A stretch of DNA of 64,000 nucleotides from Eubacteriales bacterium (lineage in GTDB: Bacteria > Bacillota > Clostridia > Lachnospirales > Lachnospiraceae). Position numbers and translations under genes: made by a program. The stretch spans positions 17,429-81,428 of the forward strand of contig JAWXVA010000003.1 of the NCBI GenBank assembly GCA_044425815.1, given 5' to 3'. Below are positions 14,106-48,225 of the stretch, in pieces. Under the pieces are notes generated by a model that was given only the letters and a program-made list of their open reading frames with translations, did no database searches and was not told where the DNA came from. Numbering within the stretch: position 1 is the stretch's first letter; every line of letters starts with the position of its first letter.

Positions 14106-14145
14106 TATTAGTCTCTCCTTTAGTTAATATTAACCATTATATAAC

Positions 14146-24570: not shown

Positions 24571-24615
24571 AAAAAAGACTATAACCAGTATACCCACACA
24601 CTGATTATAATCTTT
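24571..24615 (-). terminator. Rho-independent terminator after the LRR gene
   Basis: Minus-strand aaagattataatcagt / actggttatagtcttt stem plus T tract. Confidence 0.75.
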
Positions 24616-24636
24616 TCCTACTATAATTAATTCCAC

Positions 24637-25038: not shown

Positions 25039-25147
25039 CCTTTTCCCCCTAGACATACCGCTGTAATCGTTATATTGTCACATAGCCTCATTGTAATATA
25101 GACCACTATATATAGTGATACATACCAGTGTTTCTGGGGTGCAAGCA

Positions 25148-26494
25148 CTACACTTGCGATTCTTCCCCTAATAAAGAATTTAGTTTTTTATGCATACATA
25201 ATAAGATAATACACAGAAATATCATTGCCAAGAAAATTCCTGCAAACACTGTAAATGCCTTTAGTTCGTTTACAAAGATTTGTATATAAGGACTGAGTTT
25301 ATTTGCAAAAAACGAAGAGGACGCTATCACGCCCATAAGAAGTGATAGATATTGTTTTGGTGCATATTTGCTTACCATAGCATGACGTAACGGTGAAAAA
25401 CACATTTCACCTATTGTCAATAGACTAATAAATATAAGTGGCCAAAGAACACTTACTTGAGCCGAACTACCTCCATCTGTGATACGCAAGTACTCACATA
25501 ATGCCATTACTCCAAACGCGATTCCTAGAAACGCGAAACTGTAACTGATTTTACTAAATATCGTGACATCTCCTTGTGGTCGCATTGCTAGTCGTTTCCA
25601 TATTTTAGCCATTACTCCCCCAAGTATGATACATAACAACCCATTCCAAGATGTCGTAACCCACGAAGTAGGTATGACAAATCCACATACATTCATATTC
25701 ACAAACTCGCTCATATATATCACAAGCGACAAGTCTTGCTGAAAATAAAACAACCAAAATATCACGGATAGAAAAGCTACTATTACTATAGATATAATAT
25801 GCTGTCTCTCTATTTTTGTAAGCATTCCTCGTTCTGCACTCAAATATTTATTCGGCTGCATCCCTTGTCCTTGCAGTTTTTCCCAGTGAATTACAAACCA
25901 AATAGCCGCTACCACACAATAACAAGCTGCTACTAGAAAGCATTGCCTGAATCCTAGGATTTCTTCCTGCGCAAAAACATGTAAATACAAGTACCCTGTC
26001 ACTAGAGATCCTACAAATGTCCCTATATTTATATAGGAATATTGTATCGAAAATGCAGCATCTAATTGACTTTGTTCCTTATATTGACATCCGATTAATG
26101 TATTAATATTTCCTTTGAAGAGACCTGTACCTATAGAAACGAGCAATATCATGAGATTAATTCCTGCGATGTCTGCTGCTAACCACCCCATGCCATATCC
26201 AACTGCCATTAATAAAATACCAGCTGTCACTGCATATCTTGCCCCTAACCATCGATCAGAGATAACTCCTCCTATCATCGGTGCTATAGCAGTGTATGCA
26301 ATAAGATTCGCAGTAAGGATTGTAGCTTCTGTTGTGTCAATCCCTAAGCCGCCTTGTGCAACTGAGGTTATGAGAAATAATAATAAAATAGGTTTGATTC
26401 CATAATAGGCTAATCGTTCGAGCATCACTGTAATACAACAAACATGAAAACCAACTGGATGCGTAGTATTCGTGCGTCTAGGTAATAACTTCAT
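25148..26494 (-). CDS. Proton-dependent oligopeptide (POT/PTR2) MFS transporter
   Basis: ERLAYYG, GGVISDRWLG, GTGLFKGN, AAFSIQY..INIG, TIGEMCFSP; overlaps the cobD end by 17 bp. Confidence 0.9.
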   Translation of the reverse strand: MKLLPRRTNTTHPVGFHVCCITVMLERLAYYGIKPILLLFLITSVAQGGLGIDTTEATILTANLIAYTAIAPMIGGVISDRWLGARYAVTAGILLMAVGYGMGWLAADIAGINLMILLVSIGTGLFKGNINTLIGCQYKEQSQLDAAFSIQYSYINIGTFVGSLVTGYLYLHVFAQEEILGFRQCFLVAACYCVVAAIWFVIHWEKLQGQGMQPNKYLSAERGMLTKIERQHIISIVIVAFLSVIFWLFYFQQDLSLVIYMSEFVNMNVCGFVIPTSWVTTSWNGLLCIILGGVMAKIWKRLAMRPQGDVTIFSKISYSFAFLGIAFGVMALCEYLRITDGGSSAQVSVLWPLIFISLLTIGEMCFSPLRHAMVSKYAPKQYLSLLMGVIASSSFFANKLSPYIQIFVNELKAFTVFAGIFLAMIFLCIILLCMHKKLNSLLGEESQV

Positions 26495-27542
26495 GTGGTT
26501 CCTCCTGTCTAATTTCCTGTAATGCCATAATTAGTTTTTTATTTTCGTGGTGAAGTTTTATCGCAACTCGATAGTAGCTATCGTCTAATCCATTGTAATC
26601 ATTACACACGCGAATCATTATCCCATATTTCATCAATGATTCAGCTAAGTGCGCATGATATCGAAACAGTACATAATTTACATCACTTTCATAAACCCTA
26701 ACTCCTAGATTCTGCAAGGATTCTATCATGTAAACTCTTTCTTTCTTTATTTCCGCCAAGCTTTCTTCCAAATATATGTTTTCTTGACAGCATGCAATTC
26801 CTGCTATTTGAGCGATAGACGATACAGTCCAAGGTTGGCCTGATTGTTTGATGTTTTCAAGCACGCTCTTGTTCGACGTTATACAATATCCTAAACGAAT
26901 CCCTGCCATAGCAAATACTTTTGTAAAGGCTTTTAAGATAATGAGATGCTGAAATGTTTTTACCTCTTGTAACAACGAATATTCAAAATTTTTTTCTACA
27001 AAATCCATGAAACATTCATCTACCACTAAATAGGTTCTATGCTTTTCACAAGCTTCCATGATTTTTTTCATCAATGCATACTCACACATTTTCCCCGTAG
27101 GATTGTTCGGATTGCATATATATATTATGTTATTTTCTGGAATAGCTTCTATTATTTCTTCTGTAAGCGTGAACTGGTTTCTTTCTTCTAATAAAAAATA
27201 ACTTACTTCTGTCCCTACACTTCTTAGAGAAGCCTCATATTCGGAAAAAGTCGGTGCAAGAATCAATGCTTTTTTCGGTTTTAATGCATAGGCAATTCTA
27301 TAAATAATATCTGCTGCACCGTTACCAAATAACAGATAGTCTTCGGAAATTCCAAGGTAGTGAGCTACCACTTCTGTAAGCGCTCTGCAATTTGGATCTG
27401 GATACCGATTCAAGTAATCAATGTTTTCTAACATTGCATTTTTGACACCTACTGGCAATCCGTACGGATTTGTATTTTCCGAAAAATCAAGAGGCGTCTT
27501 TCCTGTCGCCCTTTGAAATGTATAAATGTCTCCACCGTGCAT
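26478..27542 (-). CDS. cobD: L-threonine-O-3-phosphate decarboxylase
   Basis: MHGGDIY, DFSENTNPYG, YPDP, GNGAAD, CNPNNPTG, DECFMDF, AFTK..AMAGIRLGY. Confidence 0.93.
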   Translation of the reverse strand: MHGGDIYTFQRATGKTPLDFSENTNPYGLPVGVKNAMLENIDYLNRYPDPNCRALTEVVAHYLGISEDYLLFGNGAADIIYRIAYALKPKKALILAPTFSEYEASLRSVGTEVSYFLLEERNQFTLTEEIIEAIPENNIIYICNPNNPTGKMCEYALMKKIMEACEKHRTYLVVDECFMDFVEKNFEYSLLQEVKTFQHLIILKAFTKVFAMAGIRLGYCITSNKSVLENIKQSGQPWTVSSIAQIAGIACCQENIYLEESLAEIKKERVYMIESLQNLGVRVYESDVNYVLFRYHAHLAESLMKYGIMIRVCNDYNGLDDSYYRVAIKLHHENKKLIMALQEIRQEEPHEVIT

Positions 27543-27569
27543 GATTCTGTGCTCCTTTTCTTCTGTCTT

Positions 27570-28511
27570 TTAAAATATGATAATTAATATGATCGTAATG
27601 ACCAATATTTCTGCTGATGTAAAATACATCAATTTAATCGCATGTTTAATATCTTCTGCTTCAATCTGGCGGATATCGTTCCCAATTGTTGGTTTCTGAT
27701 ACAATTCCCCAAAGTACATTGCATCGCCTGCCAACTGGACATTTAGTGCTCCTGCACACACAGATTCTGTCTGCGCTGCATTGGGACTTTTATGATTTTT
27801 CCTATCTCGCTTATATATTGTAAACGCACCTTTCCCATTGTAATTCAGGATATGCGCCGCTATTATCATAAATATCGCTGTAATTCTAGCTGGAATATAG
27901 TTTGCTATATCGTCTACTTTCGCTGCGCATCTTCCAAACAAGATATATGTTTTATTTTTGTATCCTACCATGGAATCCATTGTATTAATCGCCTTATACA
28001 TAAAGGCTAGAGGTGCGCCTCCTAGCGCCATAAATAATAATGGTGCTATCACTCCATCTGTTGTGTTTTCTGCAACCGTTTCCACTGTCGCTTTTATAAT
28101 CCCTTGTTTCTCTAAGTTCTCTGTATCTCGCCCTACGATGTAAGAAAGGTATTTTCGTGATTCTTCCATGTTATCTTCGTTTAATGGTTTATACACTTGA
28201 AGCGCTGCCTCTTTTAATGATTTTGCCGCAAAGATCTGGTAACACCATAGAATTTCTACTACAACACCTAAATAATAATTCCATCTATAACAATAAAACA
28301 AAGTAAAGTATGGAACGCTAAATGAAAGTGATATCATAATGACAACTAATAAAAATCCTCCTACTAATTCATTCTTTATTACTCGCCGCAGAACATTTTC
28401 TAATTTATGTATTACAGTTCCAATAAGACAAATCGGATGATACATCCACCTTGGATCCCCAAATAGCATATCTAGTACAAATGCAATTCCTATTATCATT
28501 GCAATCTTCAT
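27570..28511 (-). CDS. cbiB: Adenosylcobinamide-phosphate synthase
   Basis: GDP...HP, YIVGRDT, TVAEN..DGVIAP, YKAINTMDSMVGY, SPNA...E...AGAL. Confidence 0.96.
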   Translation of the reverse strand: MKIAMIIGIAFVLDMLFGDPRWMYHPICLIGTVIHKLENVLRRVIKNELVGGFLLVVIMISLSFSVPYFTLFYCYRWNYYLGVVVEILWCYQIFAAKSLKEAALQVYKPLNEDNMEESRKYLSYIVGRDTENLEKQGIIKATVETVAENTTDGVIAPLLFMALGGAPLAFMYKAINTMDSMVGYKNKTYILFGRCAAKVDDIANYIPARITAIFMIIAAHILNYNGKGAFTIYKRDRKNHKSPNAAQTESVCAGALNVQLAGDAMYFGELYQKPTIGNDIRQIEAEDIKHAIKLMYFTSAEILVITIILIIIF

Positions 28512-29071
28512 TCACTTCGCCCCCGTATCAACAACATGTCATCTTCCATATGATATTCGCATTCATACACGCCACCATTTGGTATCTGATAATCGTAAAA
28601 ACTTCTATGCTGTACCTCTAATTTCTCCATAATAGCCATGATTGTTCCACCATGGCAGACAATTACAATCTCATCTTCTGGTTTACATTCTGCAGTAATC
28701 TCATGAAATACGCGAAGGCATCTCTCTTTGAAACTAGTTCGGCTTTCTCCACCTATGGGGTTTTCTATTCCTTGTATGAAATCTTGATAATTCTTATTAT
28801 CTTTTAATTCTTCATAGGTGTGATTTTCAAACTCTCCAAAATTCATTTCCTTTAACCATTCTTTGGTACATACTTTTCTTTCTGGATATAAGAAATGAGC
28901 AGTCTGGATACAGCGCTTCATTGGACTTGCATATATCTTATCTGGATATTCTGGTAATTTGTAATTTATTTGCTCATCTCCATTGAACGCTATCGATTCA
29001 TCCGTGCAACCAATATATCTTTTCTCATAATTTCCTTTTGTTTTTAGATGTCTTACAAAATACAATTTCAT
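28508..29071 (-). CDS. cobC: Histidine phosphatase, alpha-ribazole-phosphate phosphatase-like
   Basis: FVRH..T..N, SPMKRC.QTA, EMNFGEFE, VCHGGTI; cob context. Confidence 0.8.
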   Translation of the reverse strand: MKLYFVRHLKTKGNYEKRYIGCTDESIAFNGDEQINYKLPEYPDKIYASPMKRCIQTAHFLYPERKVCTKEWLKEMNFGEFENHTYEELKDNKNYQDFIQGIENPIGGESRTSFKERCLRVFHEITAECKPEDEIVIVCHGGTIMAIMEKLEVQHRSFYDYQIPNGGVYECEYHMEDDMLLIRGRSE

Positions 29072-29433
29072 TTGATTTTCACCGCAATCCCTGATTCCAT
29101 TTTATATACTTCTTCTGCATGACTCGCTATCATACATGCAATGCGCCCTGCCAGTTCTCTCCAACGGACTTCCGTTTTCTCTATAGGTATAATTCCACAC
29201 CCTATTTCTCGCGATACTACAACTACATTTTGCTTCCACATCGTTTCTGTCGTTGCAGTATTACAAATCTGGCGAACTTCTTGTTCTATCTGTAGTAGTA
29301 TATCAGATTCTGTATCCAGTCCTTGCGTTATCCAATTTTGGATATTCATCTCTAAATCATCCAGAATTGGATAACAAAAGCTTTCTGCAAACGCTGTCTT
29401 TCCTTGTGCCATCCCCCCTGTTATAAATATCAT
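29068..29433 (-). CDS. Short CobU-like protein (P-loop plus C-terminal motif, no guanylylated-His segment)
   Basis: ITGGMAQGKT; VSREIGCGIIP....RWRELAG; SGIAVKIK. Overlaps cobS and cobC by 4 bp each. Confidence 0.8.
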   Translation of the reverse strand: MIFITGGMAQGKTAFAESFCYPILDDLEMNIQNWITQGLDTESDILLQIEQEVRQICNTATTETMWKQNVVVVSREIGCGIIPIEKTEVRWRELAGRIACMIASHAEEVYKMESGIAVKIK

Positions 29434-30206
29434 AGCAACACACCTCCTATCGCCATACTAAACGGCAGTAATAGCTCTAATAACGATATAATACATCCCG
29501 TGAGATCGCCTGTGATTCCACCAAATTTTTTCACGTACAGTGGCAAGATCCCCAAAAGAAATACGGCTATCGTTGCAACAAATATCATGAATATATTCCT
29601 GTCTGTTGCACATAAGATTACCCCACTGGCTACTATCCACATGCCCAATATTCCAACTACTATATTCTGCGCAGCAGTATTCGAAAATTCTGCTCCTAAT
29701 CCATCTTTTTTTGCATTGGGCATTTTTATCATACAGATAGCACCCACAGCACGACTTATGATAAAGATTATGGGTAAGACTATCACTTGTAATGTTTTTG
29801 TTTCTATCAGTTGTACATAGATTCCATACAAACACACAAAATATACAATTGCACCAAGCACCCCAAAAGCACCTGTTCTCGGATCTTTTAGAATTTCCAA
29901 TTTCTTTTCTCTATCACCATAGGAAAAATACGCATCGCAAGTATCAATCACCCCATCAATATGGATACCGCCTGATAGAATTACAGGTATTAGTAGTAAT
30001 GCTATCGCCTGAAAAGTAACTGTAAAACTTGTGAGTAAAGGATAGACTCCTATCATACAACTTCCGATAATCCCACCAATCACCGGTAAAAAACACAACA
30101 TATATTTCATGCTTTTTTCTTCCCATTCAATCCGAGGCATCGGGATAATGGAATACATAGAGATACATATAATCAAACTATTACACATTTGTTTTAATTT
30201 CCCCAT
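29430..30206 (-). CDS. cobS: Adenosylcobinamide-GDP ribazoletransferase
   Basis: SGGIHIDG.IDTCDA, LEILKDPRTGAFG, FGGITGD..G. Confidence 0.94.
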   Translation of the reverse strand: MGKLKQMCNSLIICISMYSIIPMPRIEWEEKSMKYMLCFLPVIGGIIGSCMIGVYPLLTSFTVTFQAIALLLIPVILSGGIHIDGVIDTCDAYFSYGDREKKLEILKDPRTGAFGVLGAIVYFVCLYGIYVQLIETKTLQVIVLPIIFIISRAVGAICMIKMPNAKKDGLGAEFSNTAAQNIVVGILGMWIVASGVILCATDRNIFMIFVATIAVFLLGILPLYVKKFGGITGDLTGCIISLLELLLPFSMAIGGVLL

Positions 30207-30735
30207 TTAGTTTCTCCTGCCCTTTGTGAATCACTGGAATTCCACAAACAATTTCTATTACTACATCTGCATCTTGAGATAATCTCCTGTTGATTTCTCC
30301 CAGGTCTTTAATATACCCTTTTGTTTCATCCGCATATTCTACACCATCGTCAAATATCTTATTGCTCACAAGAATTAGATGCTCACTGCGACTTTTTAAT
30401 GTTTCGATTCCGCGCAATATCGATTCTACGTAGTTACCCTTGTTCTTCTCTTCTGCGAATCGTTCATTTGCAAGAAGCGTGGACATACATTCTAATAAAA
30501 TTGTATGATACCCCTCTTCTTTTATTTCTTTTAGGTTTCGATACCGCTCTAGCGTATGAAATCCTTTATTCTTGCGAAGCGCATGATGTCTCTCTATTCG
30601 ATATTTCGCCTCTTCTCCGAAGGGTTCCATTGTGGCTATATATAGCTTGGGTGCTTCTTGCGCAAGTCGTACACTCAAATTTTCTGCATATTCTGATTTT
30701 CCTGAAGCGGATCCCCCTATAATGAACACAACCAT
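30181..30735 (-). CDS. cobU: Adenosylcobinamide kinase/guanylyltransferase
   Basis: GGSASGKS, YIATM, RIERHH, LLECMSTLLAN; C-terminal EVGxGIVP motif degenerate. Confidence 0.88.
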   Translation of the reverse strand: MVVFIIGGSASGKSEYAENLSVRLAQEAPKLYIATMEPFGEEAKYRIERHHALRKNKGFHTLERYRNLKEIKEEGYHTILLECMSTLLANERFAEEKNKGNYVESILRGIETLKSRSEHLILVSNKIFDDGVEYADETKGYIKDLGEINRRLSQDADVVIEIVCGIPVIHKGQEKLNGEIKTNV

Positions 30736-30749
30736 ATTTTTATTCTCCT

Positions 30750-31796
30750 TTAATCGAAGGGCTCGTATGCATCGATTTCTATTTCTTGAAAATTACACAT
30801 TTCATTATAAATCAAGCTTGCTGTTTCCAATATATTAAACGCCATTACTGCACCTGTCCCTTCTCCTAGACACATATGCAAACTTAGCATCGGCTCTAAT
30901 CCTAGCGCATCCAACAACATTTCACCAGCTGGTTCCGCCGATACATGCGTTGGAATCATGAATGCTTTTGTACGAACATCTATAGTCTGTGCAACCAAAG
31001 CGGCTGTTGCCGAAATAAATCCATCGATTAAAATCGGAACTCGATAGATTGCACCTCCTATGAACATTCCACACATTCCCGCAATGTCTAACCCACCTAT
31101 TTTAGCAAGAATATCGATTCCATCTTCTCGATTGGGGTTATGCTTCGCTAATGCTTCTTGAATAAGTTGGGTTTTTCTCAATAATCCGCTAGCACTAAGT
31201 CCTGCACCTTTTCCTGTCACAATCCCTGGATCTTGATTCAGAATACACGAAGCAATTGCGCTACTCGTGGTTGTATTCCCAATCCCCATTTCTCCTGTAG
31301 CTATTACATCATATCCAAGTAATTTCAACTGCCTTACCATGTCGATACCTACTTGGATTGCTGCTTCCACTTGTTCTATAGTCATCGCACATTCTTTCGC
31401 GAAATTCTTTGTACCATACATCACTTTTTTGTTAACAATATCTGCATTTTCAGAATCAGATGCCATACCAATATCTATTACAATGAGATCTGCTCCACAA
31501 TGTTTGCTCATAAGTGCTACAGTGGCCTTATCCGTTGTCATATTTTCTGCTACGATTTTCGTTACCTCTTGTCCTACTTGTGTAACGCCTTCTTCTACTA
31601 TCCCATTGTCTGCGCACATAACTACTACTGCTTTTTTCTGGATTCGAACTTTATCTGTTTCAAAAATCCCAGCACATTGAACGATGACATCTTCTAGCTT
31701 CCCTAAGCTATTTAATGGGGTTGCAATTCCATCCCAATTACGCTTTGCTTGATGCATTGCTTCTAAATTCAATTCTTTTATTTGATATTTATTCAT
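30750..31796 (-). CDS. cobT: Nicotinate-nucleotide:lower-base phosphoribosyltransferase
   Basis: P..SLGKLE, ADNG...EGV, GEMGIGNTT.SSA, GG.DIAGM.G, DGFIS, LGEGTGA. Confidence 0.96.
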   Translation of the reverse strand: MNKYQIKELNLEAMHQAKRNWDGIATPLNSLGKLEDVIVQCAGIFETDKVRIQKKAVVVMCADNGIVEEGVTQVGQEVTKIVAENMTTDKATVALMSKHCGADLIVIDIGMASDSENADIVNKKVMYGTKNFAKECAMTIEQVEAAIQVGIDMVRQLKLLGYDVIATGEMGIGNTTTSSAIASCILNQDPGIVTGKGAGLSASGLLRKTQLIQEALAKHNPNREDGIDILAKIGGLDIAGMCGMFIGGAIYRVPILIDGFISATAALVAQTIDVRTKAFMIPTHVSAEPAGEMLLDALGLEPMLSLHMCLGEGTGAVMAFNILETASLIYNEMCNFQEIEIDAYEPFD

Positions 31797-31839
31797 CGCA
31801 AAAACTCCTTGCTATCCTCTTTCGTGCTATAAAGATTCC

Positions 31840-32478
31840 CTAACTTCTACTTGGATTTTTCATATACATCAGTGCATTAATAATGGCTGCTGCTACGTTA
31901 CTGCCGCCTTTTCGTCCTTTTGCCACAATATATGGAACAGAGCTTTGCATAATCAATTCTTTCGACTCCACTACATTTACAAATCCTACTGGTACTCCAA
32001 TAATAAGTCTCGGTGTGATGGCACCTTGTTCTATCATTTCGTGCAGTTGAATCAGTGCCGTTGGTGCATTCCCTATTACAAGGATCAATGGCTTCTCTAC
32101 TTCAGACGCTTTTATCATGGACTGTGTCGCTCTTGTAGTTCCATTTTTTTTAGCTCTTATTCGTACATCTTCGTCCGCAATATAACAATACGCTTCACAG
32201 CCTAGTTTCCCCAGACAAGGTTTGTTAATTCCGGCTAGCGCCATATTGGTATCAGTAACAATTACACACCCTTCTGATAAAGCTTGTAGCGCCGCATCTA
32301 CAGCAGTTTCTGAAAACACTAGATTCTCTACGTATTCAAAATCTGCGGAAGTATGTATGACACGCTTCAATATCGGTGCTGTTTTTTCCTCTATTTGTAC
32401 TTCCATATCTTCCAATTCTTTTGTAATGATCTGAAAGCTTTTATCTTCAATTTCATTTGGTAAATAATAAGTTATCAA
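31840..32478 (-). CDS. cbiC: Cobalt-precorrin-8 methylmutase
   Basis: P.EIE..SF.II, RVIHTSADF, IGNAPTAL, PVGFVNVVESKE, GRKGGSNVAAAIINA. Confidence 0.95.
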   Translation of the reverse strand: MITYYLPNEIEDKSFQIITKELEDMEVQIEEKTAPILKRVIHTSADFEYVENLVFSETAVDAALQALSEGCVIVTDTNMALAGINKPCLGKLGCEAYCYIADEDVRIRAKKNGTTRATQSMIKASEVEKPLILVIGNAPTALIQLHEMIEQGAITPRLIIGVPVGFVNVVESKELIMQSSVPYIVAKGRKGGSNVAAAIINALMYMKNPSRS

Positions 32479-32514
32479 AGCTATCCCCCCCTTGTTGCAA
32501 GAATTTACGTTCCT

Positions 32515-34029
32515 TTAAATTCCTTCTTCTAGTATCTGATAAATGTGCTTCATATCTAAGCTCTCTCTCACAATATCCGCTAATTTATCATATTCGCGAT
32601 TCTTAAATTCCTGAAGGCTTCCTGTTGTATGCGCTTCAAATGTGATTCCTTTCTTCGCAGCAAGCGCTTGCACCATGGTAATTACTATTTCTTCGCTATC
32701 AAATAGTCCATGAATATAACTACCATAAATATTCCCAATCGATACGCCGTCCGTTCCCACTTGTTGCTTTTCTTTGCTTTCGCTTCTATTTCTATAGGTT
32801 AAATGATTCATAGGTTTTGTCACTTCTGTTACCCCCATATGAATTTCATACCCTTCAAATGTCTTATGATTCAAATTTGCAAAAATTCCTTGTGCATTCT
32901 TAATAACGCCTTCTACTTGGGTTCTTGTTTTCTCTTTCTGGAAAATGGTATCTGCGTTAATCAATCCTAATCCTCGTTGCACGCCGCCACCTTCTACGTT
33001 AAAAGGGTCTTGGAGGCTATTGGTTAATATTTGGTACCCGCCACAAATTCCAAAGATGGCGCCTTCAGCACTTGCATATTTTAGCACTTGAGATTCCACT
33101 CCTGATTCTCGCATCCATTTCAAATCCTCTATTGTATTTTTAGACCCTGGAATGATTAATAAATCTGGTTTTCCAAATTGACTAAGATTTGAAATATAGC
33201 GCACCTTTATTCCAGCAAATATTTCAAATGCATTGAAATCTGTAAAATTAGAGATCTTGGGTAATCGAAGTACTGCAATATCTATCTCCCTCACTCCTTG
33301 GTTTGTTAACGACTCTGATAAACTATCTTCCTCATCAATCTGCAAATGAAAATAAGGAATGGTTCCAACTACTGGTACTGGTACTAGCTCTTCCATCATA
33401 TCAATTCCCGGCTGTAGAATCTTCAAATCACCACGGAATTTATTAATGATATTGCCTTTTATGTAGGATTTTTCTTCTTCCTTCTGTAACATATATGTTC
33501 CATATAGTGCCGCAAACACACCACCACGATCAATATCACCTACCATGAGTACCGGCGCTTTTGCCATCTTAGCCATCCCCATATTAACGATATCATTTTC
33601 TTGCAAATTAATTTCTGCTGGGCTACCTGCTCCTTCAATTACAATAATATCATTTTCTTCTGCAAGGGATTCGTAGGCTTCCATAATTGCTGGCACATAT
33701 GCTTTTTTATTACGATAGTACTCCACCGCTTTCATATTCCCCATTACTTCCCCATTTACAATCACTTGTGATCCTTGATCACTCGTTGGCTTTAATAAAA
33801 TAGGGTTCATACGTACATCTGGAACTTTATAAGCCGCCTCAGCTTGTACTACTTGCGCTCGTCCCATTTCAAGTCCTTGCTCTGTTATATAAGAATTCAA
33901 CGCCATGTTTTGGGATTTAAATGGAGCCACTTTGTATCCATCTTGTGCGAAAATTCTACAAAGTGCTGCTGCTACGATACTCTTTCCTGCATTTGAAGTT
34001 GTGCCTTGAATCATAATTGCTTTTGCCAT
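32515..34029 (-). CDS. cbiP: Cobyric acid synthase
   Basis: [59 protein letters not shown]. Confidence 0.97.
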
Positions 34030-34030
34030 T

Positions 34031-35416
34031 CTAGTTCTCCGTTTCTTTATATTCCTTACATTTCGTTAAAAATTTCTTGGCCAATTCCACTTGTCCTGAA
34101 AAATGGATGTGTGGGTACTGGGCAAATATATTCCCTTCACTATATCCTGTTTCCCATGATTTCCCTGTCGTTTTTTTTGCTTGATATGCAAATGGTTCCA
34201 TATCACTTTTTGAATAATGAAATTCATGTGCATGAACTGATTCCTCAATGAACGTTCCTTCTCTAATCGGTGTAAGTTTCACATATCCAAACTGATTTAA
34301 TTTCGTAGTCATCTCACAATGCATATCGATAATGCCTACCATTCTATGTCCTTCTATCGATTTTCCCAAATACATAAATCCACCGCATTCTGCGTATATT
34401 GGCATACTTTTATGATGCGCGTTTCGAATACAGGCTTGCATTGATTCATTCTTACTAAGGGTTTCTAGATAGAGTTCTGGATATCCTCCCCCTAAAATTA
34501 TCCCGACTACCTCTTCTGGCAATTCATCATCTTCTAGTGGTGAGAAATAATGCAGATGTGCTCCTAATGTTTCTAGCGTATGGAGTCCATCTTCATAATA
34601 GAAACAAAACGCTTTATCCCTTGCCACTGCAATATGTATTCCGTCGAATTCCTTCTCTGCCTTTTCATCGATTGGATATCCCACTCGATTTGCTTCATAT
34701 TGAAACGGAGCTGCCGTATGACCAATTGCAAGGAGTCTATCTACATCTATATATTGTTCTACCAATTCCCCTAACACCTCAATTTTTTGATTTAAATGCT
34801 CAATTTCCTGAGCTGTTACGAGTCCTAGATGACGACTCTCTATCATTGCCATTGGTTCCTTTGGTAAACAGCCTAATACTTCTAACCCTGTTTCTTTTTC
34901 AATCATTTCACGATAAAATGGTAACATCATCGGTGTTACTCTATTTAAGATAACTCCGACAATATGATTTTCTTTATAATTTTGGTACCCCTGTATCATA
35001 GCCACAATAGAGATAGATGCCCCTTTGCAATCTACCACTAGTATGGTTGGAATCTGAAACTCTTCTGCTATGTGATAAGTAGAATTCTGAACTGTATTTC
35101 CACCCAATCCGTCATAGTATCCCATGACCCCTTCTACCAAAGATAGGCTATTTTCATTCGTACTACTATTCTCAGCAAATAGAGCCTTCGTTATTTCTTT
35201 CGGGCATAGAAACATATCAATATTGCGGGACTTTGTGCCAATCACTTCACTATGAAACATGGGATCGATATAATCTGGTCCACACTTAAATGCCCGAACA
35301 TCTATCTTTCGTTTTTGTAATGCTCGTAAAATCCCACATGTCACCGTCGTTTTTCCGCATCCACTATGAGTTCCAGCTATTAATATACGGTTGATTTGAT
35401 CTTTACATTTGCTCAT
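34031..35416 (-). CDS. cbiA: Cobyrinate a,c-diamide synthase
   Basis: [54 protein letters not shown] 35416 overlaps the cbiET stop (ATGA). Confidence 0.96.
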
Positions 35417-36645
35417 TCTAACGCCTCGCCTTGTCTTGCCCATATTAGATAAACTGGATTATTAGCCATCATAAGATGATAACTTCCAAGTTTCTTACTA
35501 CACGAACTATTGATGCAACTCACTTCATAGTCTAGATTCCGTTCTTTTAGTGCTTGCATTGACACATTTAAAGTCTCTAGCGTAATTGCGGTAATCAATA
35601 GCTCCACTTTCGGATTTCTATGAAATAGTACTTCTAACATTTGTGGAATATCACCTGAGCTTCCACCTATGAACACCTTGTCTGGAATTGGTAACTCCCC
35701 CATTTTATCCATAGCGTTGCATAAAAGAGGACACACATTATAACTTCCAAATCTCTTCACATTCTGCTGGATTGTTTCATAGGCTTCTGGATTTTTCTCC
35801 AAGGCATACACCATACCTTCATGCGCAAAACTAGCTAATTCCACTGTAACAGACCCTGTTCCCGCACCGATATCATATACGATATCGTCCTTTTTAATAG
35901 TTAAATAGTCCACTGCAAGGCTACGAATTTCTCGTTTACTCATGGGTACATTACTGCGTATAAATGCTTCATCTCTATAATGTTGGCACTTTGGTTTATG
36001 ATTGATATGATGCACGAACATTACGGTTAAATCTGAGAAGTCTTTATACTGTAAGAGTTCTTTTATACTTCCAGTTATTACTTTCTCTGTGTCCATAGAT
36101 AAGCTATCGCCAATTGTAATGATAAAATCTGACTCTGTATATGCTTGTAAGTGCTGTTCCAAATAATCCAATATCACAGCAGTAGTATTGTAACCACCTG
36201 TTAGTAGGAAAGTGTGTTCGTGATAAGCAATCGTTCCTAAGAGCTTTGAAATGGAATTTCTTCCATGGAGACTTAACACTTTGATGTTCTCATAGGAAAT
36301 TCCAAGCTTTGCACACAAATATTGCATAGAATTAATTCCAGCAATATTTATAACTTCGAATCGATCTTCAAAGTAGTTACGAAGCGTTTTTGCCATACTA
36401 AAAAACCCAACATCTCCAGACACCAAAACTGCAACATTGTCGTTTTTCTCTTGATGAAGTTTCTCAATGAGCGTTGTGTATTCACAAGAAATAATATTAG
36501 GATATGTTTCTCTATATAAAGCCGAAATTCGTCCAAATGCATAAACGACATCTGCTTGTTCTAATACTTCCACCCCCTGCCCTGTAAGCTGGGTTTCGTG
36601 TCCCATTCCTGCACCAATAATATAAAGCAATTTTTTTGTCATCAC
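35413..36645 (-). CDS. cbiET: Fused CbiE/CbiT cobalt-precorrin-7 C5 / 6B C15 methyltransferase
   Basis: IIGAG.G, SGDVGFFS, SLHGR; then PMSK.EIR, DIGAGTGS, FIGGS.G, NP. Confidence 0.9.
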   Translation of the reverse strand: MMTKKLLYIIGAGMGHETQLTGQGVEVLEQADVVYAFGRISALYRETYPNIISCEYTTLIEKLHQEKNDNVAVLVSGDVGFFSMAKTLRNYFEDRFEVINIAGINSMQYLCAKLGISYENIKVLSLHGRNSISKLLGTIAYHEHTFLLTGGYNTTAVILDYLEQHLQAYTESDFIITIGDSLSMDTEKVITGSIKELLQYKDFSDLTVMFVHHINHKPKCQHYRDEAFIRSNVPMSKREIRSLAVDYLTIKKDDIVYDIGAGTGSVTVELASFAHEGMVYALEKNPEAYETIQQNVKRFGSYNVCPLLCNAMDKMGELPIPDKVFIGGSSGDIPQMLEVLFHRNPKVELLITAITLETLNVSMQALKERNLDYEVSCINSSCSKKLGSYHLMMANNPVYLIWARQGEALE

Positions 36646-36664
36646 CTTCTCCTACTCTACTATA

Positions 36665-37027
36665 TTATAACGCCGCTTTTACGCGATCTACTAATACAGC
36701 TGCTAATCGTTCATCTACGCCCAACGTTTGCCCCATCGTTATGGTTACATCACTGTGCTTTTCTGTGAATTTTGCTAATTCCTCTGGGATATCTTCTCGA
36801 ATATGAATGCCACTAAACAAAAAATATGGTACTGCCACAATTTCTTTGATTCCTTTTGCTACTAAATTCTCTAATCCCACCTCTATACATTTCCCTGAAA
36901 ATTCCATAAATGCGTATTCTATTTCATAATCTACGACTTGTTGTTTTACCATCTCTACAATCTGAATTAATGTACTTTCTGTTGATTTCTCCCTACTTCC
37001 ATGGGCTAAAATAATAATACCTTTCAT
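36665..37027 (-). CDS. cbiX: Sirohydrochlorin cobaltochelatase, short single-domain CbiX(S) type
   Basis: AHGSR, PYFLFSGIHIREDIP, LG.D.RL; 120 aa. Confidence 0.88.
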   Translation of the reverse strand: MKGIIILAHGSREKSTESTLIQIVEMVKQQVVDYEIEYAFMEFSGKCIEVGLENLVAKGIKEIVAVPYFLFSGIHIREDIPEELAKFTEKHSDVTITMGQTLGVDERLAAVLVDRVKAAL

Positions 37028-37029
37028 AA

Positions 37030-38529
37030 TTAACGCTCCTTTTTTTCTAATATTTTTTCCACCATACTATGTACTGTAGCCACCTCTGAGACTTCATATG
37101 CTATCCCATACTGTTTTGCCATTGTAGCTGTTTGTTCTCCAATACAAATTCCCAAAACATTTGTTAAATTTGGTTGATTTTGCATAAAACTCTCCACTGT
37201 GGATGCACTTGTAAAGCATACTATGATTTTTTCTTGTGTGATTTGTGCTACGCTTCCTTGATTAATCTGAGTAGTTTTATATAATTTCAGTTCTTTATAC
37301 TTTATATTTTTCTTTTCTAATTGTTGAAGCAATTCATAATTTCCTTTTTCTGCTCGAAGAATCAGCACTTTGTCATTCTCTTCAATTTCTGGAATCAATT
37401 CCTCGGCGAGACTATATGCATTATATGTCTTTGGTACGAAATCTGCTCGTACTCCGTAGCTTTTTAACACGGTAGCTGTGGAAGGTCCTACTGCTACGAT
37501 TTTTGTATGGTACAAACATCTTGCGTCTTTCCCCATTTTCTCTAAATGCTCAAAAAATTGGATAACACCATTTTTACTTGTAAAGACAAGATACCTATAC
37601 TCTGAAATACCATGAATTTCTTTTGTTAACGATTCTTCTACAGGCAATGGTTCTATTTGTATCATTGGTAAATCAAACACTTCTGCACCAAATGCTCTTA
37701 GCTCTTTTTGAAGTTGTTTTGCTGAATTAGTAGGACTTGTCACTAGGATCCGTTCTCCATGTAGTGGTCGTGTTGTGAACCAATCAAATTCGTGTGATAA
37801 CGCGCATACTTTTCCTACAATAATAATAGAAGGCGATTGAAATTTCTCTTGCACTGCTTTCTCATAAATCGATTCGATTGTTGCAACTACTTTACGCTGA
37901 TTCGAACGGGTTCCATTTTCTACTAATGCTGCTGGCATTTTTCCTTCCATCCCTGCTTTGATTAACCCTTCACAAATTTCTTTCAAAGTGCTAATTCCCA
38001 TCAGAAATATTAAAGTTCCTTTTGTCTGCACTAGACTATCAAAATCAACCTTCAATGCTTCATTTTTCTTTTGGTGTCCCGTAATCACATGAAAACTACT
38101 ACAAAAATCTCTATGGGTGACGGGAATCCCTGCAAAGGATGGTGCTGCAATAGCTGAAGTAATTCCTGGCACTACTTCATATGGAATCTTGTGCAGTAAT
38201 AGTGTTTCTATTTCTTCACCACCTCGTCCAAATACGAAAGGGTCTCCACCTTTTAATCGAACCACCAAATTTCCCTCAAGCGCTTCTCTAACTAGGATTT
38301 GATTGATTTCTTCTTGCGGTATGCGATGGTGATTATTTTCTTTCCCCACATTAATTAATTTCCTACCGCATGGTATTAATTCCATAATTTCCTGAGAAAC
38401 TAAGCGATCAAAAACTACTACCTCTGCTTGTTCTAATAATTCTTTCGCTCGTAGTGTTAATAAGGATACTTCTCCAGGTCCAGCCCCTACTAGTGCCACG
38501 AACCCTACCTGACCTGTTGAATTATTCAT
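37030..38529 (-). CDS. cobA-hemD: Uroporphyrinogen-III C-methyltransferase / uroporphyrinogen-III synthase fusion
   Basis: [34 protein letters not shown]; C-terminal HemD ([19 protein letters not shown]). Confidence 0.95.
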
Positions 38530-39442
38530 ACGACTCTGTTCCTTTCAATCGCTCTTTTTTATCTATTTCATCTAAGATACTCTGTGCTAATGTTTTCCCT
38601 AGCGTCTCTGCTTCCTCTAATGTCCCTTTTATTTGTTTGATTAGAAGCTCATTCGTATCACTTTGGAATAGACCAGTTAATAACAATTCACCTGCTTCTA
38701 TCACCCCATAGGCAGCAGTTGGTGTACTGCAACCTCCATCTAATTTACGTACAAAAGCTCGTTCTGCCTTGGTTACAATATACACACTTGGATCATGAAA
38801 ATGCTGTAGGTAACTGTAATCTTGACCAGCTCTTCCTTGTACAGCTAGTACACCTTGACCTGCAGATGGTATGATCTCTTCCACCGAAAAATATTCAGAA
38901 ATACGGTCTTCTAATCCACTTCTTTTTATTCCTGCTGCAGCAAGAACAATCGCATCGAATTCACCTTCATCTAATTTCTTAAATCGTGAGACAAGATTTC
39001 CTCGAATTGGTTTGATATTCTGATAGCCTAATTTCTCTAATTGTACTTGACGACGCTTGCTAGATGTTCCTACCAAAAGGCTCTTTTTATCCAACTGGTC
39101 TGCATCGATGTTCTCCTTATTTAGAATCAGCACATCCCTTGGGTCTTCCCTCCTTGATACAGCAACGATCGGTAATTCTGGATTCTCATCCATAGGCATA
39201 TCTTTGAAGCTATGAACAGTAATGTCCACCATATCCTTCTGAAGTGCCTCATCTAATTCTTTAACAAACAACCCTTTTCCGCCAATTTTATCTAAGGTTA
39301 CATCTAATATTTTATCTCCTGTCGTTTTCATTGGTATAATTTCTATCTCAATGCTACTGTCGTATTGTTTGATATTTTCTACCACAATTTCTGTCTGAAT
39401 CATAGCTAATTTGCTATCTCTTGTACCTACTCTAATCTTCAT
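38522..39442 (-). CDS. hemC: Hydroxymethylbilane synthase
   Basis: GTR.SKLAM.Q, GKGLFVKE, VHS.KD.P, REDPRD, GTSS.RR, RGN, GGCSTP. Confidence 0.97.
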   Translation of the reverse strand: MKIRVGTRDSKLAMIQTEIVVENIKQYDSSIEIEIIPMKTTGDKILDVTLDKIGGKGLFVKELDEALQKDMVDITVHSFKDMPMDENPELPIVAVSRREDPRDVLILNKENIDADQLDKKSLLVGTSSKRRQVQLEKLGYQNIKPIRGNLVSRFKKLDEGEFDAIVLAAAGIKRSGLEDRISEYFSVEEIIPSAGQGVLAVQGRAGQDYSYLQHFHDPSVYIVTKAERAFVRKLDGGCSTPTAAYGVIEAGELLLTGLFQSDTNELLIKQIKGTLEEAETLGKTLAQSILDEIDKKERLKGTESYE

Positions 39443-40644
39443 AATATGTCCCTAATAGCCTCTACTGTATTTTTCACTACATTATGTTTATCTCCATCTT
39501 TCGAGACAATTCCTCCTATCAAATCATGATTGTCAAAAAGTGCTGGAAAATAAAAATCACATTGTTTTGGATTGTCACACACATTTACCAGAATTCCGCG
39601 CTTTTTACACGCTTGATAAATTGCATCGTTTACCATCCTATCATTCGTTGCTGCTATAACAATATCACAATGTTCTAAGTGTTCTTCTTTAAATTCTGAT
39701 TGAATATACTGCACATGATCCGCTTCCAAAGCATCCCTTTCTTGTGCGACTACTTTTAGTGAACATGCGAATGAAGCAAGTTTCTCTATTCTACGCATGC
39801 CAACTTTACCTGCACCAACCACTAATACTTGTTTCCCTTTCATATCAAGAAATAGAGGGAATACCTTGCATTTCTCGTTATTCGTTTGGATGTGGAGTTC
39901 TTGTAGAAAAAATTGTTTCACTTCTTCTAATGTCAGTCCTTGTTCTACTGTTGGTCTCCCAACTGTTAGCAAGGTAGCTCCTGTAATCTTTGCTGCTTGA
40001 AATTTCTCTGGGAATCCACCATTTCCGCCTGTATCTTTGCTCACTACATACTTGATTTGAGCTCTTCGCATCATAGCTACATTCATCTCGATTGAAAATG
40101 GTCCTTGCATACAGATAATATTGGATGGTTGAAATCCTAAGTGAATCGCTTTTTCTAGTGATTCCATCGCCGGCAATATTCTAGGGTATACTCTAGATTC
40201 ATACGCTTTTATCTGTTGAAAATGATGCAAATCTTTGCTTCCTGTAGTCAACAAAATGTTACCTGTTTTATTCGATAAATATTCACAGAGTGTGATGATA
40301 TTATCAAAACGTATTCCTTGTTCTTTTGCACTTTCTCTGACGATTCTAATTTTCTTTGGACGCTTGTCCTTTAATGTTTCATACGCTGTGTTGATATTTT
40401 CGCTTACCACTTGCGCATACGGATGACTTGCATCTACAACATAATCATACTGGGCAATTAAATCTCGTATTTCTTGTGCTTCTAACCTACCTTCCAGTAC
40501 ATTTAACCCTGTGATATTTTCTATACAGAAGCTTCCATATTTTGTTGCTACACAAGCTGTAGTCTCTATATGATTTTGGCATAAATATTCGCAGATTTCT
40601 CTTCCTTCTTGTGTCCCTGCAAATACAATTACTCTTTTATTCAT
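39439..40644 (-). CDS. cbiJ: Cobalt-precorrin-6A reductase fused to a precorrin-2 dehydrogenase (SirC/CysG-N) domain
   Basis: N-terminal FAGTQEG, DASHPYA, MQGPFS, K.TG..GG..EK; C-terminal FPLFLD.KGK.VLVVGAG.VG.RR, AAT.D..VN, VNVCD.P..CDFYFPA. Confidence 0.85.
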   Translation of the reverse strand: MNKRVIVFAGTQEGREICEYLCQNHIETTACVATKYGSFCIENITGLNVLEGRLEAQEIRDLIAQYDYVVDASHPYAQVVSENINTAYETLKDKRPKKIRIVRESAKEQGIRFDNIITLCEYLSNKTGNILLTTGSKDLHHFQQIKAYESRVYPRILPAMESLEKAIHLGFQPSNIICMQGPFSIEMNVAMMRRAQIKYVVSKDTGGNGGFPEKFQAAKITGATLLTVGRPTVEQGLTLEEVKQFFLQELHIQTNNEKCKVFPLFLDMKGKQVLVVGAGKVGMRRIEKLASFACSLKVVAQERDALEADHVQYIQSEFKEEHLEHCDIVIAATNDRMVNDAIYQACKKRGILVNVCDNPKQCDFYFPALFDNHDLIGGIVSKDGDKHNVVKNTVEAIRDIL

Positions 40645-41368
40645 GAATCCGATACCCTCTAGGTGTTACTAATTTCCCTTGAATCACTTTCGTTGTTTCA
40701 TTTCCTATAATGACAGTGGTAAACATGTCTACCTTCTCTTCTTTCAACTCAGACAATGTCAGTATCTTGTGACCTTGTCCCTCTCTTCCTATATTACGCA
40801 CATAACCACACATCGTATCATCTGCAATATTTCTCATGATGATTTGACATGCTTTTTCTAAGAAATCATGCCTTTTTTTACTACTAGGATTATATAAAAC
40901 AATTGTAAATCCAGCCTGTGATGCTAAATCCAACCGTTTCTCGATTTTTTCCCAAGGTGTTAATAAATTACTCAATGAAATCACTGCGAAGTCATGCGTA
41001 AGTGGAGCACCTAATACTGCCGACGCACTCGTTGCTGCCGTAATTCCAGATACCACTTCAATCTCTGTATCCACATTTAATTCTTCACAGATTTCTATTA
41101 CTAGCGATGCCATACCATATACTCCTGCATCACCGCTAGAAACCATCGTAACAATTTTTCCTTCCCTTGCTTCCATCACTGCCATTTTGCAACGCTCTAC
41201 TTCTTTCATCATTGCTGTAGAAATGATTTCCTTTCCTTTGATTAGCTCTTGTATCAAGTCAATATAAACCGTATATCCGACAATAACTTCTGATGCTTCA
41301 ATGGAATCCAATGCTTTCTGAGTCATTTGTGATTGTTCCCCTGGACCCAATCCTACTATATATATCAT
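40637..41368 (-). CDS. cbiH: Cobalt-factor III C17 methyltransferase
   Basis: VGLGPG, VGY..YI, SSGDAGVYGMA, GAPL.HDF..ISLS.LLTPW, YNP.S.KR, TPRGY. Confidence 0.95.
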   Translation of the reverse strand: MIYIVGLGPGEQSQMTQKALDSIEASEVIVGYTVYIDLIQELIKGKEIISTAMMKEVERCKMAVMEAREGKIVTMVSSGDAGVYGMASLVIEICEELNVDTEIEVVSGITAATSASAVLGAPLTHDFAVISLSNLLTPWEKIEKRLDLASQAGFTIVLYNPSSKKRHDFLEKACQIIMRNIADDTMCGYVRNIGREGQGHKILTLSELKEEKVDMFTTVIIGNETTKVIQGKLVTPRGYRIHE

Positions 41369-41387
41369 CGTGCTACTCCCTTTCTTC

Positions 41388-42389
41388 TTACCATTCTATC
41401 GTACAACAACACTTTACACATACGGCCATTGTCATTGCGTTTATGATTGTTTTTTGTATGGTTAATTCCTTCGCACCACTCGCTACTATTGCACTTCTTT
41501 CACACACATTATCCACCCCAGTGATGGATTCAACGAATTCTGATTTCGAGAATTCTCCTTCTATATTCTTTAGTTCTTCTGCTGAATACGTAAGAAATTC
41601 TATCCCAAATTTCTTTGTAAAATGCAAGATTGCTTCTTCTTTTGACTTCAAGTCAATACTAGCAACTGCTGATACCAAGTGTAACGGAATCTGATTCTTT
41701 TCCAGTAATTCTAATAATTGACGCTCGAATAGCTGCGAATCTATACCTTTTCTACAGCCTATCCCAAGTACATATTTCTTTGGTGTCATCCATAGCGTCT
41801 GTTCAAAAACGCTCTTATAAGTTTCAGAAATCAAGATTCCTATCTTTCTATCTCTCTTATATGTCTCTTCTATAAAATCTGGTAAATTATGAATAGGATA
41901 GTCTGATACAACACCTACCTTTTCTCCTGCTAGCATTGCGGAAGAAATGCATTTGATGCGGTCTACATTCTGAATAAATAGTTGCTGTTTCTTTGCCCAT
42001 ACATCTACCGCAAACACATGATTAATATCTGTAGCTGTAGTGATAACTGGGGTTGCAGATATCACTTCGGCAAGTGTTTCTCCATACGCATTAGCGCCTC
42101 CAAGGTGTCCCGATAGAATAGGTATCACAAACTGCCCCAATTCATCCACCACCAATACAGCAGGATCCCGATCCTTCTCTTCTACAAATGGTGTGATTCC
42201 CCGAACGGCAATCCCCACTGCACCTACGAATATTAATAAGTTATTCTGTTTAAACCACTCTCCGACCTGCTCTCGCAAGCGTTTTGTTTTATAGTCTTGA
42301 ATTTGAATGGCACCAGAATATTCTCTAGCTATTCGCCCTGCCAATTCATGCCCTTTCGCACTAAAACTAAATATTACAATCGTATTCAT
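41388..42389 (-). CDS. cbiG: Cobalt-precorrin-5A hydrolase
   Basis: GAVGIAVR, DPAV.VVDE.G, LSGHLGGAN, VITTATD, GIGCRKG, NVCE.SA. Confidence 0.94.
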   Translation of the reverse strand: MNTIVIFSFSAKGHELAGRIAREYSGAIQIQDYKTKRLREQVGEWFKQNNLLIFVGAVGIAVRGITPFVEEKDRDPAVLVVDELGQFVIPILSGHLGGANAYGETLAEVISATPVITTATDINHVFAVDVWAKKQQLFIQNVDRIKCISSAMLAGEKVGVVSDYPIHNLPDFIEETYKRDRKIGILISETYKSVFEQTLWMTPKKYVLGIGCRKGIDSQLFERQLLELLEKNQIPLHLVSAVASIDLKSKEEAILHFTKKFGIEFLTYSAEELKNIEGEFSKSEFVESITGVDNVCERSAIVASGAKELTIQKTIINAMTMAVCVKCCCTIEW

Positions 42390-42411
42390 TATATTTCCTC
42401 ATACACCGTGT

Positions 42412-43164
42412 TTATCTTCCAGTTCTAAATTCATGGGTAAAACTTTCATCGTATAATTTTGATAACTCGTATTCATTTCCTAATATGTCACCAATCACAA
42501 TCAGTGCTGTCTTCGTGATATGATGTTCTTTTGCACAGGCTTCTAATTCACCTATCGTTGTGCGATACACGCGTTCGTCTGGCCAAGTTGCTTTGTACAC
42601 AATGGCTGCCTTTGTACACTCCTTGTATCCACCTGCTAAGAGCTCTACAACTAATTCTTTAATCAAAGATGAAGTTAAAAATAATACCATCGTTGCTTGG
42701 TGAGATGCCAGCAACCGTATCTTCTCTTTTTCTGGAACAGGGGTTCTACCTTCCATCCTTGTAAGAATGACGGTTTGACTCACAGCTGGTAACGTATATT
42801 CTACTTTAAGCGTTGCCGCTGCTCCACAGAAAGAACTAACACCTGGCACGACTTCATACTCCAACCCAAACGCATTCAATCGATCCATTTGCTCTCGAAT
42901 TGCTCCATAGATACTTGGATCTCCTGTGTGTAAACGTACGATAATCTTATCTTCCCCATCATCATTCTTTAGCACTTCCATGACTTCCTCTAATGTCATG
43001 CTTGCACTATTATGTATCTGACAGTTGGATTTACATGCTGTTAATAACTCTGGATTCACTAAAGAACCTGCATATATAACCGTATCTGCCTCTTTCAGTA
43101 GATTTGCTCCTTTTACAGTAATTAAATCGACTGCTCCTGGTCCTGCTCCGATAAAATAAATCAT
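42412..43164 (-). CDS. cbiF: Cobalt-precorrin-4 C11 methyltransferase
   Basis: GAGPGA.DLIT.KG, YAGSLV, RLHTGDPSIYGA, T.PAVSQTVI.TR, ATWPDE, S.LYD..F.H. Confidence 0.96.
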   Translation of the reverse strand: MIYFIGAGPGAVDLITVKGANLLKEADTVIYAGSLVNPELLTACKSNCQIHNSASMTLEEVMEVLKNDDGEDKIIVRLHTGDPSIYGAIREQMDRLNAFGLEYEVVPGVSSFCGAAATLKVEYTLPAVSQTVILTRMEGRTPVPEKEKIRLLASHQATMVLFLTSSLIKELVVELLAGGYKECTKAAIVYKATWPDERVYRTTIGELEACAKEHHITKTALIVIGDILGNEYELSKLYDESFTHEFRTGR

Positions 43165-43850: not shown

Positions 43851-43885
43851 GCTATTTCTCCTTATTTATCATCATTTAGACTACA

Positions 43886-45073: not shown

Positions 45074-45092
45074 TTGTATTCCTCTTTTTTAA

Positions 45093-45935: not shown

Positions 45936-45937
45936 TA

Positions 45938-47055: not shown

Positions 47056-47057
47056 TT

Positions 47058-47881: not shown

Positions 47882-47917
47882 AATAAAAATAAAAAATCCA
47901 AGGAAACATTCCTTGGA
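47882..47917 (-). terminator. Attenuator terminator of the cobalamin riboswitch
   Basis: tccaaggaa-aca-ttccttgga stem plus a long T tract, about 65 nt before the cbiM ATG. Confidence 0.85.
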
Positions 47918-47974
47918 CGATAATCATATAAATTAGGATACAACAAAATGATGTCGTATGACCAATATGTACGC

Positions 47975-48165: not shown

Positions 48166-48225
48166 AAACAATTATTAATACAATAACACACCGTAACTAA
48201 ATTCGTCAAGTTAGTGGTTTTCAAT

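Follow-up and report, generated by a model that had tools for sequence, protein, structure and literature searches.

Bacterial carriers of the POT/PTR2 family, such as GkPOT, PepTSt, PepTSh, and YePEPT, are peptide:H+ symporters. There is a precedent for a tetrapyrrole precursor as substrate, as POT carriers bind and transport 5-aminolevulinate (ALA), which has been shown for PepTSh, and a PepTSh structure with ALA bound has been solved (6h7u; PMC6338836). Tetrapyrrole precursor salvagers of the 'PBG' type, PBG being porphobilinogen, are a predicted class of cobamide-making bacteria (Shelton et al. 2019, PMC6461909, Supplementary Table 10). In that work no transporter is proposed for them, and the experimentally verified salvage is that of ALA only, in clostridia. 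Here we analyze a stretch of 64,000 nt from Eubacteriales bacterium (Lachnospiraceae; GCA_044425815.1, contig JAWXVA010000003.1), referred to in its whole length as the window. The last gene of its cob operon encodes a POT-family transporter, and we lean toward the reading that this protein imports PBG for cobamide synthesis. Known bacterial POTs are found in a context of peptide use, whereas the window POT sits in a riboswitch-controlled cofactor operon. The features that define this setting are listed below.

25148..26494, minus strand: POT/PTR2-family MFS transporter, candidate PBG importer; 448 residues, 12 transmembrane (TM) helices
26478..26510, minus strand: junction of cobD and the POT gene, with AGGAGG 6 nt before the ATG, both within cobD, and an overlap of 17 nt
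26478..27542, minus strand: cobD, L-threonine-O-3-phosphate decarboxylase (TIGR01140, 289.8 bits; PF00155)
25148..47816, minus strand: 22.7-kb cob operon, 25 genes, cbiM first and the POT gene last (open reading frame lists, Pfam matches)
47896..47918, minus strand: terminator hairpin (10 bp) with a T-run between the aptamer and cbiM
47997..48169, minus strand: cobalamin riboswitch aptamer (RF00174, 82 bits, E 1.2e-18)
48180..48209, minus strand: promoter-like site upstream of the riboswitch (TTGACG, 18 nt spacer, TG, TATTGT), a match to the consensus alone

The POT gene is gene 25 of the operon, in which the largest intergenic gap is no more than 43 nt. The 5′ half consists of cbiM, cbiN, cbiQ, cbiO, cbiD, cbiL, cbiF, cbiG, cbiH, a cbiJ-sirC fusion, hemC, and cysG/hemD. 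The 3′ half consists of cbiX, cbiET, cbiA, cbiP, cbiC, cobT, cobU, cobS, a short cobU-like gene, cobC, cbiB, cobD, and the POT gene. An earlier note on this DNA had the cluster start at hemC; the operon starts at cbiMNQO, and hemC is merely the earliest tetrapyrrole step for which the genome has a gene. The same note had placed the AGGAGG and the ATG of the POT gene inside cobD, and the minus-strand read of the junction, cAGGAGGaaccacATGaagttattaccTAG, bears this out. In the two overlapping frames, CobD ends with EIRQEEPHEVIT and a stop codon, and the transporter starts with MKLLPRRT. The 17-nt overlap of cobD and the POT gene is a predicted translational coupling.

Both an aptamer and a candidate expression platform are present in front of cbiM. 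The hairpin at 47896..47918 is the probable platform, acting by transcription attenuation, and a switch of this kind looks as if it would act on the whole cob unit. Short contigs of fish-gut metatranscriptomes match parts of the POT, cobD, and cbiB genes with 100% identity. The POT gene is likely co-transcribed from the riboswitch-controlled promoter, in which case plentiful B12 would shut down PBG uptake along with the pathway.

The operon also holds the genes that would use the imported precursor.

38522..39442, minus strand: hemC, porphobilinogen deaminase, intact (PF01379, 1.1e-71, and PF03900); the sole hemC of the genome
37030..38529, minus strand: cysG/hemD fusion, uroporphyrinogen-III methyltransferase and synthase (PF00590, PF02602)

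The genome (96% complete, 228 contigs) has one hemC and one cysG/hemD, and searches of it gave no match to hemB (PF00490) and no match to hemA (TIGR01035). The best match to hemL reaches 143 bits where the cut-off is 527, and the matches are distant aminotransferases only. The absence of all three genes is confirmed by tblastn of the genome with the HemB of a congener and the putative HemA and HemL of relatives, so that what the earlier note had reported for the cluster holds for the whole genome. In hemB-positive relatives, hemB and the putative hemA and hemL cluster with hemC, and hemB fills the slot after cysG/hemD. The window contig is intact across this slot, and hemB is absent there; therefore, the pathway gap is visible on one intact contig. 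With hemA, hemL, and hemB absent and hemC, hemD, the corrin-ring genes, and the nucleotide-loop genes present, the genome has exactly the PBG-salvager genotype predicted by Shelton et al. (2019; PMC6461909). Their genotype was defined without a transporter, whereas candidate importers are named here by linkage.

The gap restricts the possible cargo. Imported ALA would be useless because hemB, which is required to use it, is missing. Hydroxymethylbilane and uroporphyrinogen III are unlikely cargo because hemC would then be superfluous and because their size is far beyond that of POT substrates. PBG is therefore the logical cargo: among the intermediates, it alone both serves as input to HemC and comes close to a dipeptide in size. 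The product of hemC is its proposed consumer. Where the earlier note had suggested a dedicated, B12-repressed importer of ALA or PBG, the idea of a precursor importer gains from the gene gap, from conserved linkage, and from convergent importers in other genera (see below); ALA as the cargo does not survive the missing hemB. ALA could still be imported if an unrecognised, non-homologous enzyme converted it to PBG, and we regard this as very improbable. POTs do transport ALA, the ALA complex 6h7u is among the Foldseek matches of the window POT, and ALA salvage by clostridia has been shown experimentally (PMC6461909). However, hemB is absent not only here but also across a quarter of the hemC-positive genera of the family, no candidate replacement enzyme linked to hemC was found at the sampled loci, and the Tyr-to-Ala substitution in the pocket (described below) would make room that a ligand of less than dipeptide size does not require.

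The extent of the genotype in the family was surveyed in 400 genera, each represented by one genome. There are 168 genera with hemC and 130 with hemB, and 41 of the 168 hemC-positive genera (24%) lack hemB. Precursor salvagers overall make up 1.7% of all genomes (Shelton et al., PMC6461909), and the PBG-salvager genotype appears far commoner than this in the family. For 30 hemB-less and 40 hemB-positive genera, we sampled hemC together with its flanks (5 kb upstream, 15 kb downstream; 737 kb for the hemB-positive genera). An Opp/Dpp-type ABC importer is joined to hemC/hemD at 9 of the 30 hemB-less loci (L136-L141, L143, L145, L153). It comprises two permeases, a fused ATPase, and a family-5 binding protein (SBP_bac_5), the last being 64-73% identical across genera. 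At 6 further hemB-less loci, a BioY-family protein (PF02632) of 185-208 residues is encoded on the same strand beside hemC or sirC-hemC.

L132, 13411-14004, same strand as hemC: BioY-family protein (PF02632)
L135, 3807-4397, same strand as hemC: BioY-family protein (PF02632)
L148, 4357-4983, same strand as hemC: BioY-family protein (PF02632)
L150, 4418-4990, same strand as hemC: BioY-family protein (PF02632)
L151, 13076-13648, same strand as hemC: BioY-family protein (PF02632)
L157, 2642-3199, same strand as hemC: BioY-family protein (PF02632)

None of these BioY-family proteins is named by an NCBIfam model, and no cobalamin riboswitch was found in front of the BioY-hemC operons. An importer of the ABC or BioY type is thus found at hemC in 15 of 30 hemB-less loci versus none of 40 hemB-positive loci (Fisher's exact p = 2e-7). 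All 18 importer-bearing genomes that were checked also lack hemA. In a separate observation, one hemB-less genus has a CUT1-type ABC system (SBP_bac_1 and two permeases) after cysG/hemD (L147, 7886-10921), in place of the Opp/Dpp-type one.

The same replacement is seen close to the window genome. In a set of 40 close relatives, the genomes with hemC but no hemB are that of the window and those of two congeners (G004 and G005). Both congeners carry an Opp/Dpp-type ABC importer in the slot after cysG/hemD, which is occupied by hemB in the congeners G002 and G006.

L128 (G005), 3903-9307: Opp/Dpp-type ABC importer after cysG/hemD
L129 (G004), 11068-16317: Opp/Dpp-type ABC importer after cysG/hemD

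The window genome has no ortholog of the ABC binding protein or of the BioY-like protein; therefore, the POT is its only cluster-linked importer candidate. Import of cobalt or nickel by the Opp/Dpp-type systems was considered and rejected as their main function: their binding protein matches OppA (282 bits) better than NikA (129 bits), and a cobalt importer is unlikely because 10 of the 11 genomes with the ABC system also have CbiM, mostly in the same cluster. The hemC-linked ABC system is a second and more widespread candidate for a PBG importer, and the hemC-linked BioY-type proteins may be a third type of precursor importer. The dipeptide ABC permease Dpp of E. coli is reportedly an importer of ALA and haem. 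It belongs to the same superfamily as the hemC-linked ABC systems and would be a case of a peptide-type importer that carries a tetrapyrrole precursor. However, Dpp is a general peptide permease used opportunistically, whereas the systems described here are genetically dedicated, lying inside cob/hem operons; the window POT, moreover, is a secondary carrier.

The linkage of the POT gene to cobamide genes is not confined to the window. The ten proteins closest to the window POT (P0001-P0010) are 61-68% identical to it, are all encoded on metagenome contigs, and form with it a monophyletic clade on a long stem in our tree. In 5 of the 11 clade genes (the window, L098, L099, L108, and L111), the POT gene directly follows cbiB-cobD with short overlaps or gaps, and the CobD proteins of the other four are merely 56-62% identical to that of the window. 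Three further arrangements are each seen once: hemC-cysG/hemD-cobO-POT (L102-104), hemD followed by POT after a gap of 3 nt (L202), and POT immediately upstream of a cobalamin riboswitch (L110, in which the riboswitch lies downstream of the POT gene).

The adjacency to cobD has another possible explanation, namely that the transporter imports some other small molecule for late cobamide assembly, such as a building block for the aminopropanol linker (threonine, threonine phosphate, or Thr-peptides) or for the lower ligand. This would explain why the gene lies by cobD and the nucleotide-loop genes, as it does in the five clade genes directly after cobD and cbiB. Nevertheless, we consider it quite unlikely. 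Two clade members are joined to hemC/hemD, far from cobD; the sole demonstrable pathway gap is upstream of hemC; and the convergent importers elsewhere lie at hemC/hemD, in the hemB slot of relatives.

The sister clade (P0011-P0042), from Dorea and other human-gut Lachnospiraceae, is 57-60% identical to the window POT, and its genes neighbor M20 and M18 peptidases, an amino-acid permease, and a GntR regulator. Its proteins share with the window POT the 12-TM architecture and the loss of the first ExxER Glu and of the TM7 Glu. They differ in keeping the pocket Tyr, in having Tyr at the position of residue 251, and in a cytoplasmic loop that is ~22 residues longer. Cob genes were found within 10 kb at none of 79 genome loci of wider POT relatives, and no cobalamin riboswitch was found in front of POT homologs at the Dorea, Peptostreptococcus, and human-gut sister-clade loci. 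A metagenome contig scan with a profile of the cob-linked clade returned sister-clade genes of at most 61% identity and no further clade members; the 80 metagenome loci from it are all of the sister clade or of relatives further removed. In the genome contig scan, the best match outside the window genome is from Dorea (58%, sister clade).

The window POT is a genuine member of its family. It matches PF00854 (PTR2; 1.4e-28, 100.3 bits, cut-off 27), TIGR00924 of NCBIfam (162.9 bits, cut-off 130.2), and also MFS_1 of Pfam. An AlphaFold2 model built from an input of 24 homologs (mean pLDDT 83.9, pTM 0.83) shows an MFS fold that superimposes on solved POTs, with a TMq of 0.85-0.87 to 4ikz, 6fmr, and 6h7u (Foldseek; GkPOT, PepTSt, and PepTSh). 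The likeness to GkPOT, PepTSt, PepTSh, and YePEPT thus extends to both family models and the fold, whereas the identity is only ~25%. The architecture also differs. Bacterial POTs usually have 14 helices, 12 TM helices plus the HA/HB pair. The model has 12 long helices and no HA/HB pair, and a 20-residue loop joins TM6 and TM7. By length and alignment, the local POT family (~460 residues, Lachnospiraceae and Peptostreptococcaceae) appears to be 12-helix without HA/HB as well, the window protein alone having been modelled.

The motifs VMLERLAYYG, GTGLFKG, and IGEM, which the earlier note had read from the sequence, are all present. The first of these is an incomplete form of the TM1 signature ExxERFxYY, in which Val23 stands in for the first Glu and Glu26, Arg27, Tyr30, and Tyr31 are retained. 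In POTs, the first ExxER Glu and the TM7 Glu are presumed to serve in proton coupling. The first Glu is missing across the whole local POT family and is replaced by Phe in the peptidase-linked sister clade, in which the TM7 Glu is missing likewise. Because these two losses and the 12 helices are common to the sister clade, they cannot mark a new function. We therefore rejected the loss of the ExxER Glu, pointed out in the earlier note, as clade-specific evidence. Most of the closer POT clades also lack both Glu residues.

In the alignment, K127, N156, F251, and N284 of the window POT correspond to chain positions 136, 166, 310, and 342 of GkPOT, which we take to be the numbers of its pocket residues, so that the mapping looks reliable. 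Lys127, Asn156, and Glu363 align with GkPOT Lys136, Asn166, and Glu413, which hold the peptide termini from TM4, TM5, and TM10. In GkPOT numbering, the residues kept are Glu35-Arg36, Lys136, Asn166, Asn342, and Glu413, and the window POT retains the cationic residues Arg27, Lys34, and Lys127 in addition to Asn156 and Glu363. Two other pocket positions have changed, the TM7 Glu (GkPOT Glu310) being Phe251 and the TM2 Tyr (GkPOT Tyr78) being Ala69. Relative to the sister clade, the cob-linked clade has Tyr replaced by Ala69, which is specific to the clade, and Tyr replaced by Phe251. Other changes specific to the clade are Thr to Ile65, Arg to Cys136, and, in TM11, Val to Ser392 and Thr to Ser394, together with a deletion of ~22 residues in the central cytoplasmic loop.

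Judged from the alignment, Ala69 and Phe251 take the places of residues lining the substrate pocket of POTs with solved structures. GkPOT Tyr78 presumably corresponds to Y79 of PepTSh. Removal of Y79, a binding-site Tyr, improved the affinity of PepTSh for the bulky non-peptide valacyclovir (PMC6338836). A larger and less acidic pocket that retains the amine and carboxylate clamp would suit PBG.

The kept residues also allow a simpler explanation, in which the protein is an ordinary di/tripeptide:H+ symporter for general amino-acid supply that came to lie at the 3′ end of the cob operon by chance, so that the linkage has no meaning. It is a bona fide POT in which the residues for the peptide termini (Arg27, Lys127, Asn156, and Glu363) are kept, its sister clade is linked to peptidases, and passenger genes of any kind readily settle at operon ends. 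We consider this explanation unlikely. Clade genes are linked to cob or hem genes repeatedly, in four arrangements, among organisms whose CobD proteins are merely 56-62% identical; the clade has a long stem branch and substitutions at pocket positions; and unrelated importers lie at hemC in other hemB-less genera and never in the hemB-positive genera sampled.

Several observations weigh against PBG import. To our knowledge, PBG, which has two carboxylates, is not a known POT substrate, and its free occurrence in gut contents is presumptive. Among the matching RNA contigs, none crosses the junction of cobD and the POT gene. For three of the 11 clade members, the contig shows no cob gene (L109, 7.3 kb; L113, 3.8 kb; L203, 2.5 kb), and the POT gene of L113 adjoins an M20 peptidase, as would fit an ordinary peptide symporter. 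Sampling is narrow: the clade is almost exclusively from fish gut, the runs that hold the window itself being labelled as such; nine of the ten relatives come from two sets of sequencing-run accessions, and two are in NCBI metagenome assemblies. The status of hemA, hemL, and hemB was assessed for the window genome alone among the clade carriers. The function proposed for the clade is read from linkage.

On balance, a dedicated, B12-repressed importer of a tetrapyrrole precursor is the best-supported reading, and it is partly supported. We infer the substrate PBG, the direction of transport, the coupling to protons, and the co-transcription. In the mechanism that we propose, a proton-coupled carrier of the POT type would have been re-purposed from the uptake of di- and tripeptides to that of PBG. 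The bacterium would have lost hemA, hemL, and hemB and kept hemC, hemD, and the complete pathway for the corrin ring and the nucleotide loop, so that cobamide would be made only from imported PBG. The importer would be the last, translationally coupled gene of the operon, probably transcribed from the riboswitch-controlled promoter.

The operon itself may have been acquired laterally and be foreign within the genus. POTs in genomes of the same genus are 36-43% identical to that of the window, and none is linked to cob genes. Cob proteins of the same genus (L128-L131) are 30-61% identical to those of the window and are arranged differently; those of L098 and L099 are 50-83% identical and colinear. 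At one locus of a common human-gut species (L219, 13990-15806) and ~25 near-identical ones, a peptidase-linked sister POT lies 2.6 kb from cbiG-cbiJ. The interval holds an opposite-strand HGD-D gene, an ABC ATPase gene, and a c-di-AMP receptor gene, and the locus has no riboswitch. This may be a chance neighborhood, or else a clue to the way in which a cob operon came to take up a POT.

Downstream of the POT gene, the same strand carries the following features.

24637-25056, minus strand: open reading frame of 139 residues after the POT gene and ahead of the first strong terminator, with nothing but a BspA-type leucine-rich repeat segment (PF13306)
24572..24617, minus strand: first strong terminator-like hairpin 3′ of the POT gene, after the leucine-rich repeat gene fragment
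23001-24452, minus strand: mmdA-type carboxyltransferase

No significant hairpin was found directly after the POT stop codon (z -0.97), and the hairpin at 24572..24617 is the probable end of the transcript. The leucine-rich repeat frame looks like a remnant of a larger gene for a surface protein. Distant POT paralogs (32-42% identical; L011, L013, L036, L039, L043, L045, L056, L087) lie divergently beside an mmdA-type carboxyltransferase gene, whose product is 72-80% identical to that of the window in several Lachnospiraceae. The difference in orientation suggests a local rearrangement.

In the literature searched, we found no importer for PBG and no paper that links POT carriers or other transporters to PBG salvage. 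The window POT is most likely the first candidate PBG importer. Together with the ABC and BioY-type genes, the POT locus provides concrete, clonable candidates, by which the PBG salvager becomes a testable uptake system. A broader reading, to which we give a little less than even odds, is that PBG is an exchanged public good in the gut: about a quarter of the hemC-carrying genera of the family would have lost hemA, hemL, and hemB, and three unrelated transporter types, namely the POT clade, the Opp/Dpp-type ABC system, and the BioY-type protein, a substrate-binding component of the ECF type, would have been recruited independently to hemC clusters as dedicated PBG importers in bacteria without these genes. 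If PBG import holds true, a cheap early intermediate would be traded in gut microbiomes beyond finished B12, predictions of the capacity to make cobamides would change, and there would be a physiological substrate other than peptides for a bacterial POT carrier.

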